Part shown: piece after piece, positions 6,001 to 9,000 of the stretch
How the letters are laid out: each line of letters begins with the position of its first letter
Position numbering within the stretch: position 1 is the stretch's first letter
IMG/VR virus record: IMGVR_UViG_2778261064_000024
DNA: 16,631 nt
Direction: 5' to 3' (one strand)
Source: a virus
Taxonomy: Duplodnaviria > Heunggongvirae > Uroviricota > Caudoviricetes
Made by a program: the position numbers

Positions 6001-9000
6001 TTGCATCAGGACTGGTTTCGGAAAATATTTCATTTTGCGCAAGTTCTTTCATTTTGATTTTTCCGTGATTGATAATTAATGCGGTTTTATTTCGGCTTGT
6101 CTGTTACAGATATGGAAGGTGTATTTTATTACTCGTCACAACGACGCTGCTTTTACGGGTAAGCCATCGCGCCCGATGAAAACTTTAATCATGCAGTCGG
6201 TAATGCATGTTTTTGTTGTGAAGTTACGAATATAGAGTTTTCTCTTTTCAATATTGTTTGCTGAAGCGATATATGTCCGACCTTCATGAAGAACATAATC
6301 GCCAGGCGTCACGCACTGACGTGGTATTTCATCAGTTCCGAAGTGATGAGCAATCATAATTATCTCCATTTTCACAAATGAACTTTGTTGATGCGGTGCC
6401 TGGTGCCTCCAGGTGACGTTAACCAGTTAACAACCAACGCCGGGTCAGGGGACGATGACTTTCCGTGACATCCTGTCGGTTTAACTGTTCCGCGTGCGCA
6501 TAGCCGCATTCACCGCATCACAAAATTCACTTTAAAAAGGGCGGACATCAGCAATCGGCAAACCGATGTCCGCCAAGGGCTACACACAGCAATGTTGTTA
6601 TTCACAACCGGAAGCGCACGGTCGAAGAAATCTAACGACAAGCCTTCAATGGGAAAGAGTCTTCGCCGTGCACTTTCGTGTTGTACCCTGGCTTTCAGGG
6701 TAATGTCTGTTCAGTAAACTGAGAGTGCCGGAACTTACCCGTGTCCGGCGCACGATCTCCACCTCACCCGTGGAGAACTCCTCAACTACAAACCCCGTAA
6801 GGAGAGTGAATTTATGACACAAGAAGAAAAAGTGATGTTTCTGATGCGGCTGGCTGTCGATACCTACAACACACAATTCAGGGAGAAAGATATACCTCAA
6901 AAGGCAGTTCCTGCCGCGGTAGATAAGGGCGGTGCTATTGCCGTATTTTACGATGCATTTGAATCATTTTTTGATGAAAAACTCGACGCTGTTAGCGACT
7001 TCGGAACATCGAGTAATAAATAACGTTCATTACGGTTCTTAAACAACAATCAGTGGGCTTGATGTTGTTCTTTTCAAGCTCACTTGCCATCACTTCCATT
7101 ATTCTTGCACTTACACGAATTATTTGGTGGCTGTAAGCGACGCAACTATCGCTGATATTGCTGTTTATTTCTATTACTTCATTTTCACCATTAGCATCAA
7201 CTTCGGATGCGCTGTTTTCATTATCCTGTTTCAGTGCTTTTTCTGCCATCTGGATGCGTGTCAGCGTTGCGGAATTTGGGCTAAGTCGATAAACCTGTTT
7301 GGCATCTTCCAGAAGCAGGGCGATAATGTGCTTCAGTTCTGTTTCGTTCATAGTTAACTCCGGTAGTTGCAATTTATTAATATCAGGCGGTCAGCTCTTT
7401 AAGCTTCTGAACTGCTTTATTCATTTCATCCATACAGTCGATGAATTCGTCCAGTTTAAGCTGCATTTTTCCGGCGGCCTGAAGAATTTCAAGTTTTAAG
7501 GGCGCAAGTTTTTTGTTGAATTCATCATCTTCCTGGCGTTTTTTCTCCGCAATTTCGGCGGCTTTCAGCAATTCTTCAGCCTGTTTTCTGAGTATTTCTG
7601 GTGAAGGTGAAACTGCTTTGAGGTTATTCACTTCAGGTTCCTGTTGTTGCAGAATTAATTTGTTGCATTCTCTGCGTGAGCGTTTCATTGCAGATTCGCA
7701 CTTCTTGCAATAAATGGCTCTCCCGTCACGCTTGCTGGCATCTGAATAAAAATCATTGACTGATTTTGTCTGCCCGCATCTGGTACATAATTTTGATTGA
7801 AGGTCCTTAATGATTGTGACGTTTCCTTCCCGCTTGGGATATCCATATTTTTTGTGGCGTAAAAAGGTTACTCCGTTACCAGAACCTTCTTTTCTGACCT
7901 TAAATACAATGATGCTTTCCCGTTTATCGATAAAATCGATGAGCTGGTTTCTCTCCTTTCCTGACAGTTCGGCAAATGTCTTAACTTTTTTAGTAACCTC
8001 AGTAAGGCGAACGCCGTCAGGCATTTTTTCAACGAAGTTTTTAATCTCTGCAAGCGGACGCCATAATTTTTGCGGCAAAACTGAAGGCGTGGTCATCAAT
8101 CACCTCGCCGTCAGTTGTTTGGATTTCCGGTAGCCTGCCGCGTAAATGGCTACGTTTGGAAGACATACACCAGTTTCTGGTTGCTTATGTCCAAACTCAT
8201 TCGCGTACACAATGGCCGCTCGCTCCAGATTGCGTCTGTATTCTTTCTGTTGCCAGATCACGTCCTGTGCCATGAACTTAATTGGCTTAGCGTCTTCTAT
8301 GCGCTCAGGCGTTTCGTGAGTACCTTTAGCCTGAATCTGCGCTCTGCTTAGAGTAGGGCGGTGTAATACTTCTGAACTTATTGCTTCTTCGCGGGCCAGC
8401 ACGCCGTTAGCTAATGCCTTTGCCTTTAAACGCTCACGACGACGAGAACGTGAATTGCCTTTGAACTGAGTTCTGCGTGTCATATAGACCTCCTGATGAA
8501 CTTTGGTGGTGTGGTAGGTGGGAGACCCATTTCGACCTGTTTCGGCCTACTTCAATTCGGCAATAGTCCCACAGGCCTCGCCGCTTTACGTGCGACATAT
8601 TCCCGTCCATGAACCCTTCACCACACCCCAAAGTTCACTTTGGTTATTGCGCTTTGTCAGCGCCGTAGATTCATATTCGAATCGTTGTATATTCACCGCC
8701 CTGGTGAGTAATACGTCCTGCTGATGACGATAATAATGAACCAATAGTTCGATATTATCAAGAACTATTGGTACGAATTTTGGTGATTTATTAACTCTAC
8801 GAAGTATGATTCTGATATATAAGGAAATTTATTTTTGAAAATGTGGCTGATGAAGGTTATGCGGCAGGGATCAGAACTGCATGGTTTAGCGAGTTACATC
8901 AATAAATACAATGAGTTATGTTTTTTTAGGTGGGGGATCGTGAGGCAAAGAAAACCCGGCGCTGAGGCCGGGCTAGATTTTAAAGTATTTATCTTTTAGA

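Follow-up and report, generated by a model that had tools for sequence, protein, structure and literature searches.

A small accessory gene on the opposite strand of the leftward operon in a Shiga-toxin-type lambdoid prophage

The window analyzed here is a 16,631-nucleotide (nt) caudoviral stretch of DNA (IMGVR_UViG_2778261064_000024), and all coordinates refer to its full length. It is the early region of a Shiga-toxin-type (Stx-type) lambdoid prophage. An open reading frame (ORF) of 69 amino acids (aa), at positions 6814-7023 of the plus strand, lies inside the leftward (pL) operon of the minus strand. This ORF is a genuine, conserved, coding gene. It occupies a recurrent accessory-gene slot that extends from a DicF/KilS-type small RNA (sRNA), located upstream of kil or dicB, to the preceding gene of the pL operon. 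The slot houses about 20 alternative, unrelated small ORFs, the sieB gene of the Rac prophage among them, and this cargo is always directed against pL. In kind, the 69-aa gene is ordinary among phage accessory genes: it is an uncharacterized addition to the sieB-like opposite-strand class. The slot with its conserved leaders, together with a covarying stem (H1) and the KilS-type sRNA, is more interesting than the gene itself. Taken as a whole, it appears probable, though well short of certain, that the genuine small accessory gene in this sieB-like slot has its own weak promoter and is on in the lysogen and off after induction.

A conserved gene directed against the leftward operon

A preliminary description of this DNA had proposed a 69-aa plus-strand ORF, embedded in the leftward operon and in overlap with the 3' end of a convergent minus-strand gene. 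All of this holds. Reading of the frame and the call made by the Prokaryotic Genome Annotation Pipeline (PGAP; RefSeq WP_000189936.1) agree on the ORF, minus-strand pL genes flank it in annotated relatives, and it overlaps the convergent gene, referred to here as X, by 32 nt. A homology search of the protein, which the description had suggested, placed it as a full-length member of PHROG 2605 (E = 1.5e-45, with residues 1-69 on profile positions 1-69 of 69). The family is small. A search of 5.8 billion proteins returned 15 clusters or relatives, and a profile search of 1.84 billion representatives returned 16 family members. The family alignment extends to 30% identity while its length stays constant, and it displays the motif MTxEEKVMFLMRLAVDTxNA...IExxYxKFExFLDKKL with conserved positions E4, L10, L13, V15, I42, Y46, and E50.

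The ratio of nonsynonymous to synonymous change (omega, or dN/dS) also speaks for a coding gene. Compared with a 47%-identical copy in the relative L110, dN/dS was 0.42 at a proportion of synonymous differences (pS) of 0.57, and omega for the ORF ranged from 0.26 to 0.42, which indicates purifying selection. Furthermore, the plus frame of the ORF is the sole one of the six frames that is free of stops in both the window and L110. The rival frame is an 84-aa ORF with a TTG start at 6646-6900 of the minus strand, whose translation, according to the preliminary description, would have spoken against the gene. This ORF was rejected as a gene: it has no match in Pfam or PHROG, the minus frames are all closed in the diverged relative L110, and it crosses sequence that is non-coding in the Qin prophage of K-12.

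The 69-aa protein is acidic and has neither a hydrophobic stretch nor a membrane segment. Two amphipathic helices are predicted, and AlphaFold placed them at residues 3-23 and 38-64 (predicted local distance difference test scores of 64 and 67 in two runs). The guanine-plus-cytosine (GC) content of the ORF is 0.419, compared with 0.411 for X, 0.417 for the pL gene orf238, 0.51 for the hairpin module upstream of the ORF, and 0.471 for the whole window. For a moron, a composition unlike that of the neighbors would be expected; that of the gene (0.42) differs from the composition of the module but not from that of its pL neighbors (0.41-0.42).

A recurrent slot and its shared hairpin module

The best-known occupant of the slot is sieB (lambda, P22, Rac; PF14163), which likewise lies on the opposite strand in the pL operon and converges with the upstream pL gene without a spacer. 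In lambda, sieB (plus strand, 34482-35036) ends where N (minus strand, 35037-35438) ends. In Rac, the order is kilR (minus), KilS (minus), sieB (plus), and ydaF (minus), and sieB is found to the right of KilS and H1, that is, in the equivalent slot. Because Rac and lambda show the same layout, the architecture that had appeared striking in the window is the textbook sieB arrangement. The two proteins are unrelated in sequence, SieB having 160-190 aa and the other being a 69-aa acidic protein with two predicted helices. The 69-aa protein did not match the SieB profile (PF14163) in a search of the Pfam library in which Rac SieB scored 109 bits. Unlike the window, the Rac sieB leader also lacks the two hairpins described below as H4 and H5. 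An exclusion phenotype is known for SieB, and we know of none for the 69-aa protein.

The leader of the 69-aa gene is structured. The preliminary description reported two hairpins ahead of the gene; both exist, at positions that differ by 3-10 nt from those it gave. The first, H4, is formed by GCCGGA-N11-TCCGGC at 6727-6749 of the plus strand and can be extended to GUGCCGGA/UCCGGCGCAC at 6725-6753, with UUACCC as the apical loop. The second, H5, is formed by TCTCCAC-N7-GTGGAGA at 6756-6776 (UCUCCAC-CUCACCC-GUGGAGA in the plus-strand RNA). As described earlier, the hairpins have the motif ACCCGTG in common (6737-6743 and 6766-6772). Two further elements lie to the left: the hairpin H2 (UACCCUGGCUUUCAGGGUA, 6684-6702) and the long stem H1, with arms at 6603-6628 and 6660-6684, which forms the left portion of the module described next. 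A 30-aa ORF with a GTG start at 6725-6817 of the plus strand contains both hairpins and ends in an ATGA that overlaps the start codon of the 69-aa gene. It was taken as a chance ORF because it has no Shine-Dalgarno (SD) sequence and its peptide is frameshifted and unconserved among leader variants.

This upstream module, including both hairpins and the junction of SD and ATG, is common to unrelated cargo and also occurs free of cargo. In a dicB-type prophage (L005), the 200 nt that precede a plus-strand 77-aa ORF are ~85% identical to window positions 6603-6810, although the 77-aa and 69-aa proteins are unrelated. Direct reading and alignment showed that positions 6603-6795 are homologous to the ydfC-dicF spacer of K-12 Qin with both hairpins included and the H1-H5 order kept. 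In Qin, the module lies between the ydfC stop and dicF without any plus-strand ORF. DicF is processed from this spacer, which is called the "long untranslated region" of the dicBF operon, and the dicBF transcript is made on the strand opposite to the cargo and is cut by RNase E and RNase III (PMC5069750; PMC9438474). A DicF-like terminator and an sRNA follow just downstream of the module on the same strand in the window as well. Unlike the window, Qin has no plus-strand gene after the module and has ~130 extra nt between the module and DicF. The seed of the window sRNA resembles those of KilS and RprA, and not that of DicF.

How widespread is the module? An 18-mer from the first hairpin was scanned in public collections, and 117 copies with both hairpins were found; matches on non-enteric genome contigs were excluded as chance matches in GC-rich genomes. 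The module was empty in 70 of the 117 copies, with the stop of a ydfC-type gene 20 nt past it. In 46 copies it was occupied: the module ends in ...GTGGAGAACTCCTTAATTACCAACC, continues into a conserved CTCAGGAGGGTGAAATG (junction ...AACC/CTCAGGAGGGTGAAATG), and is followed by one of several ORFs. The core stem of H4 was invariant across 58 unique copies. The strong SD sequence AAGGAG that had been reported for the 69-aa gene is indeed present at 6799-6804 of the plus strand, with 9 nt to the ATG, and every cargo-bearing copy has a conserved SD-ATG junction. Thus the structured leader of the preliminary description stands as a structure, but it is not private to the 69-aa gene, given the copies without a plus-strand ORF and the transcription of its Qin counterpart on the other strand. 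A search of the leader (6700-6813) against Rfam returned no match at gathering thresholds and nothing overlapping at E-values up to 10; the matches at E-values up to 10 (DicF-like, RprA-like, and STnc100-like) were all on the minus strand to the left of the leader.

The ORFs behind the hairpin module belong to at least five unrelated cargo families (69/63, 73/74, 91, 92, and 77 aa), and in each case 11-41 nt are shared with the 3' end of a convergent gene on the minus strand. Purifying selection was evident in other cargo families too, with omega values of 0.15 and 0.28. A search anchored on H1 identified ~15 further types of plus-strand ORF to the right of H1 and, in addition, insertion sequence (IS) elements. 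Among the H1-anchored ORFs, Pfam matched only Rac SieB (PF14163) and gave one borderline GhoS-like match, and the PHROG assignments were all "unknown function". PADLOC-DB 2.0 had no match for X, orf238, or seven other cargo proteins. The borderline match came from a cargo family of 94-96 aa (L228, L197) that scored 21.2 bits against GhoS (PF11080), for which the cut-off is 21. The IS-type ORFs in the slot (L187, L207) begin with MASVSISCPSC... in one case and with MSRKNQRYSKEFKAEAVR in the other; we take the former to be IS1 InsA-like and the latter IS3 orfA-like.

Three types of leader precede the cargo. Type I is that of the window and Qin. Type II matches type I from H1 to H4 and differs in the second hairpin and the junction. 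Type III consists of H1, an inverted repeat ACCAC-N9/10-GGTGG, and a short leader. The 69-aa family is found behind type I (window, L110), behind type III (L241, L244, L246), and behind a leader with H4 and H5 only (L247). In type III leaders (for example, L241 at 2433-2500, L166, L194, and L179), the inverted repeat lies inside the spacer of a candidate promoter, TTTT(C/A)A-N18-TAT(C/T/A)(C/T)T, and is followed by a conserved GTTCTCACACAACCA ahead of unrelated cargo genes. The inverted repeat may be an operator. Upstream of a distant family member, L243 carries many direct and inverted copies of GTGGGACAT at ~1100-1230, an arrangement that is iteron- or operator-like.

The 69-aa gene is an insertion relative to the empty relatives. 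Occupied dicB-type loci retain ydfC and have X and the cargo added, and in empty loci ydfC abuts the module. The gene opposes the early-left genes in the window, in L110, and in six distant homologue contexts, and it sits between those genes and the immunity region. In three compact prophages the family member faces a cI-like repressor gene, and in L241 a SieB gene follows it on the same strand. Like morons, the 69-aa gene is additional DNA that comes and goes between genes which are neighbors in relatives (the moron concept is that of Juhala et al. 2000, as cited in PMC4104026). Its orientation against the lytic operon has been described as a characteristic of accessory loci (Owen et al. 2020, PMC7067206). 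A classical moron has its own promoter and its own terminator, and for the 69-aa gene there are a weak candidate promoter and no canonical terminator. Of the moron proposed in the preliminary description, a separate opposite-strand accessory gene that comes and goes between homologous flanks therefore survives, its own terminator does not, and no consensus promoter was found. The site beside the DicF/KilS-type sRNA has repeatedly taken up small genes, of ~20 families and nearly all without a known function; sieB is the sole characterized occupant, and the occupants form a shortlist for new exclusion, defense, or host-modulating proteins.

The sRNA at the other edge of the slot is a homologue in the KilS/DicF position, at 6534-6622 of the minus strand (approximate ends), with a terminator stem at 6540-6549/6565-6574. 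It aligns with Rac KilS over its full length and takes the equal position upstream of kil. Its Rfam scores, 29.5 bits as DicF-like and 29.7 bits as RprA-like, are both below threshold. RprA is a core-genome sRNA. The window sRNA has an exact 14-nt stretch, AUUGCUGUGUGUAG (6580-6593), in common with RprA positions 60-73, and K-12 KilS has 16 nt in common with RprA. The KilS-type sRNA may mimic RprA or compete with it. KilS of Rac (b4833) has been verified by Northern blotting in K-12, and transcription start site data indicate that it has its own promoter (Bar et al. 2021, PMC8175672). KilS is a neighbor of the 69-aa gene and not a part of it. AgvB and AsxR are located at a different prophage site.

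The H1 stem has 17-24 base pairs (bp) and exists in three fully compensated versions (window, L241, and L246) on a constant CACAAC/GTTGTG base. The other two versions, at ~2348-2428 in L241 and upstream of 1501 in L246, form perfect stems of 17-18 bp. Because their inner sequences are completely different from that of the window and yet the pairing is intact, H1 is certainly a selected structure. It most likely serves the minus strand, because the 5' part of the KilS homologue is the left arm of the stem. On that strand, the H1 loop contains a -10-like TAGATT/TAAATT, which, as read from the sequence, is probably the -10 element of the sRNA and stands back-to-back with the candidate promoter of the cargo. 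RNase III might cut pL read-through transcripts at H1, or the sRNA might target H1 in cis.

Expression of the gene and rival explanations

The best evidence for a plus-strand transcript comes from the 3' end of the gene. The preliminary description assigned the gene a terminator consisting of a hairpin and a T-run at 7042-7075 of the plus strand, an assignment that is not supported. The hairpin (7042-7068) with its T-run is weak (-7.6 kcal/mol, z = -0.73, and 44 of 200 shuffles fold equally well), a terminator scan did not report it, and in relatives its 5' arm is not maintained. It competes with a stronger stem, AGUGGGCUUGA/UCAAGCUCACU at 7052-7062/7074-7084 (-15.6 kcal/mol), of which the T-run (7069-7075) is the loop, and the bases of the T-run double as E-K-N codons of the minus-strand gene X. 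This stronger stem, at 7052-7084 of the plus strand with 11 bp including one G.U, is the window copy of a conserved plus-strand 3' stem-loop that the 69-aa family carries as its own. An uninterrupted stem of 9-12 bp was present in all six family contexts, 27-49 nt past the stop codon. Altogether these stems contain 11 G.U pairs that would be A.C mismatches on the minus strand, and the plus-strand fold was stabler by 4-13 kcal/mol in five of the six contexts. In the window, z for the 3' region was -2.93 on the plus strand versus -0.64 on the minus strand. The stem is also kept where no minus-strand gene overlaps (L245, L247). It would protect the end of the messenger RNA (mRNA) or mark a processing site or a Rho-dependent end. 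In another cargo family, F3, the stop is followed 25 nt later by a canonical terminator on the plus strand.

A weak conserved plus-strand promoter may lie within the module. The candidate, read from sequence and alignment, is CTTTCA-N17-TAAACT at 6692-6720, with CTTTCA at 6692-6697 and TAAACT at 6715-6720. The -10 variants in relatives (TAAAGT, TAAGCT) retain T1, A2, and T6. Its +1 would be expected near 6726, which is the foot of H4. In L247, which lacks H1-H3 and has unrelated upstream sequence, TAACAT is found 5 nt before the foot of H4, and in four copies homology starts exactly at GTGCCGGA, which marks the same boundary. The corresponding elements of type III leaders are TTTTCA or TTTTAA, a spacer of 18 nt, and TATCTT, TATTCT, TATCCT, or TATACT.

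Translation may be damped in the window variant of the leader. In the minimum free energy structure of the plus strand, an anti-SD sequence, CUCCU (6778-6782), is predicted to pair with AGGAG (6800-6804). The SD pairing probability of the window-type leader was 0.84 versus 0.46-0.50 in shuffles, and 0-2 of 40 shuffles reached it. The SD sequence is masked in window-type and type III leaders only, and with the majority junction of type I it is more exposed than in shuffles. In type III, the masking may be moot because the candidate -10 element overlaps the anti-SD sequence. The loop UCACCC is perfectly complementary to GGGUGA at the ribosome binding site in the majority junction; the window has a mismatch there, and no covariation was seen.

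How would a gene with this layout work? It would be transcribed on its own from the weak promoter inside the module (6692-6720) into an mRNA of ~360 nt, with the two hairpins at its 5' end and a 3' end at or past the 7052-7084 stem. The 5'-terminal stem-loop (H4/H5) would stabilize this mRNA, and the CUCCU:AGGAG pairing would hold back its translation. Because the gene faces pL, which CI keeps off, it could be expressed in a lysogen. Expression of the 69-aa gene in lysogens is an inference by analogy, for which the activity of KilS serves as a precedent of transcription in a repressed prophage. After induction, N-antiterminated convergent transcription would silence the gene through transcriptional interference and a sense-antisense duplex. 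By analogy with sieB in the equivalent slot, the product most likely benefits the lysogen, either by exclusion of or defense against other phages or by modulation of the host; this is the weakest step of the model. Since the gene is found in Shiga-toxin-type prophages (O104:H4 lineage), a lysogen-expressed product could affect the phage resistance or physiology of pathogenic E. coli.

A more general and tentative proposal is that the module, as a control element with two faces, gives lambdoid prophages a standardized slot for cargo. The covarying H1 and the sRNA promoter would yield the KilS/DicF-type sRNA on the pL strand. Read in the opposite direction, the same ~200 bp would be an expression cassette with a weak promoter, 5' hairpins, SD sequence, and ATG. 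Recombination would swap ~20 unrelated small genes, sieB included, into this cassette, and convergent pL transcription would shut all of them off at induction. If true, the slot would be a hotspot of lysogen-expressed, mostly uncharacterized small proteins with a common on/off logic. The K-12 "long UTR" (untranslated region) upstream of DicF is itself a conserved, covarying module, and one that may function on both strands.

Several observations weigh against a self-transcribed, lysogen-benefiting gene. A sigma-70 promoter scan upstream of the ORF found no site that reached 9 of 12 matches. The candidate promoter has 7 of 12 matches, and even its commonest variant, in which the -35 element is TTTTCA, has 8 of 12. 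The conserved 3' stem is not a canonical intrinsic terminator because no U-tract follows it, and neither the scan nor the folds detected a canonical intrinsic terminator for the gene. Sequestration of the SD sequence was rejected as a slot-wide rule, as the mean SD pairing across the slot was 0.65 versus 0.66 in shuffles. The conservation of the module cannot be credited to the cargo because 60% of the copies are free of cargo and the other strand is transcribed in Qin. The protein itself is without a recognizable relative of known role: it had no match in Pfam or PADLOC-DB 2.0, a PDB sequence profile search was empty at useful E-values, and Foldseek with the predicted fold drew no match from the PDB and no meaningful one from BFVD. 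Its position is therefore the whole argument for an exclusion or defense role. Literature searches by accession and topic returned nothing on the gene and no expression data. Moreover, the gene is dispensable. It is truncated in a functional Stx phage, Shigella phage 75/02 Stx (L002), which lacks the equivalent of ~6580-6930; gone with it are the seed of the sRNA, all of the module, and the first two-thirds (5' side) of the gene, and the last third of a related ORF is retained together with the 3' stem-loop. A 90%-identical copy in E. coli 23CRST047 (L004) has a stop at codon 3 (ATG ACA TAA, the equivalent of 6814-6822); PGAP makes no call on this copy, which is pseudogenized.

Among the rival explanations, a possible though doubtful one is that H4, H5, and the rest of the structured region act only in a minus-strand, pL/dicBF-type transcript, as a 3' UTR or spacer concerned with processing, stability, or sRNA biogenesis, and that the gene merely landed beside them. 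The identity of the module with the K-12 dicBF long UTR, which is transcribed and processed in that way, is consistent with this explanation, as are the 70 copies without a plus-strand ORF, four copies in which H4 and H5 stand with ydfC alone, and the 5' end of KilS inside an arm of H1. Pair counts in the module give mixed evidence on the strand. RNAalifold proposed different helices for each strand of the module, with a lower overall energy for the minus strand (-36.3 vs -28.2), and the minus strand is also favored by C.A cells, which occur at the H1 base and in H1b of the window itself. The H4 core is uninformative in this respect because its stem never varies, and the strand labels in the H1 covariation comparison are unreliable because the H1 base is symmetric. 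On the other side are G.U cells inside H1b (57 of 58 unique sequences) and the series C-G, U-A, and U.G that H2 displays in relatives. The leader proper also points to the plus strand: its plus-strand fold (6725-6813, -31.0 kcal/mol) had a z of -3.98 that none of 200 shuffles equaled, as compared to a z of -1.30 on the minus strand, where 24 of 200 shuffles were as good. Of 59 unique variants folded as whole segments, 47 gave a stabler H4-H5 on the plus strand (mean -24.8 vs -22.4 kcal/mol), and the variants of H5 are U.G pairs, which are possible on the plus strand only. Furthermore, the module continues seamlessly into the conserved SD-ATG in cargo-bearing copies, and L247 has H4-H5 directly before a family member without H1-H3 or ydfC. 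The two views are compatible, and H1 very probably serves the minus strand in either case.

The remaining alternatives concern the gene rather than its leader. It is unlikely that the gene is expressed early in infection or during lytic growth instead of in the lysogen, with a product that could, for instance, take over the host or counter its defenses. No promoter of consensus quality was identified, which would allow such timing, and the predicted masking of the SD sequence would suit conditional expression. Many early inhibitors made by phages are small, acidic, helical proteins. However, N-antiterminated pL transcription should interfere with the gene exactly while the early genes are on, the anti-pL orientation is preserved in every context examined, and sieB is described as prophage-expressed in PMC10883804. 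It is also improbable that the gene and X form a functional pair, either through mutual mRNA control by the 3' overlap or as a protein pair of the exclusion-plus-self-immunity or toxin-antitoxin kind. The convergent overlap shared by all cargo ORFs, the joint insertion of X and cargo beside ydfC in dicB-type loci, and the co-occurrence of the X C-terminal segment SEL...IKPT..NLRWVM..II with the 69-aa family in the window, L110, and L241 would suit a pair. Nevertheless, the type of X is independent of the cargo family (two X types are found with F2, and either F2 or F3 is found with X type B), and L245, L246, and L247 have no X, the family member facing a repressor gene over a gap of 350-450 bp. 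The lack of a PADLOC match also speaks against a pair, as does the comparison with type I toxin-antitoxin systems such as hok/sok. These likewise combine a small ORF, a multi-hairpin leader, a masked SD sequence, and antisense transcription, but their toxin is a hydrophobic membrane protein, and the 69-aa protein is acidic, looks soluble, and lacks a transmembrane helix. Unlike in the hok/sok-type design, masking of the SD sequence is not a conserved trait of the slot. As for antisense RNA, pL read-through is all that was identified for the 69-aa mRNA, and the KilS-like sRNA does not overlap 6725-7084. Finally, the chance that ORF 6814-7023 is no gene, with the minus frame 6646-6900 being translated or the region being only a long 3' UTR, is very small indeed. 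The shortness of the protein, its lack of a Pfam family, and the copy without a PGAP call are the points in favor, but the uncalled copy is the one with the early stop, the minus frame is without matches and is closed in L110, and purifying selection, the unique open frame, and a family of conserved length down to 30% identity all argue for a gene.

Neighboring genes and further features of the window

Over positions 6400-7400, identity is 99.1% to Escherichia phage PhiR5_2 and 96.9% to phiSTEC1589-Stx1c. The O104:H4 prophage is likewise 99% identical, and the annotated gene order given here comes from such records. Positions 6560-7100 were matched over at least 80% of their length in 65 of 5,426 complete E. 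coli genomes, O104:H4 strains included.

The leftward pL operon on the minus strand starts with N (8100-8483), followed by orf238 (238 aa, 7383-8099) and X. A gap of ~630 bp without annotation, which holds the 69-aa gene, separates X from kil (6136-6357, minus strand). Beyond kil come a hypothetical gene, a RecE-like gene, gam, bet, exo, and int. The repressor gene and cro are located at ~11.1-12.1 kb. X is a 119-aa member of PHROG 2982 at 6992-7351 of the minus strand according to PGAP, or at 6992-7372 with a TTG start. In the window and in L110, L015, L112, L092, and L096, X is a mosaic of 60-201 aa in which the segments MEFKDLP..., ...ELKHIIALLLEDAK..., and ...SELEKxNIKPT..NLRWVM..II are variously combined.

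Three further features were observed. An STnc100-like Rfam match (6343-6537, minus strand) over the kil leader is below threshold, with 29.1 bits against a gathering score of 47. Positions 6400-6545 are ~85% conserved beside kil or dicB in many lambdoid phages. In the region of the replication genes, a near-perfect tandem duplication with a period of 778 bp and ~2.07 copies spans 12735-14343 and may be genuine or an assembly artifact. It results in two ORFs, 12814-13599 and 13592-14680, where PhiR5_2 annotates one O gene of 1083 bp.

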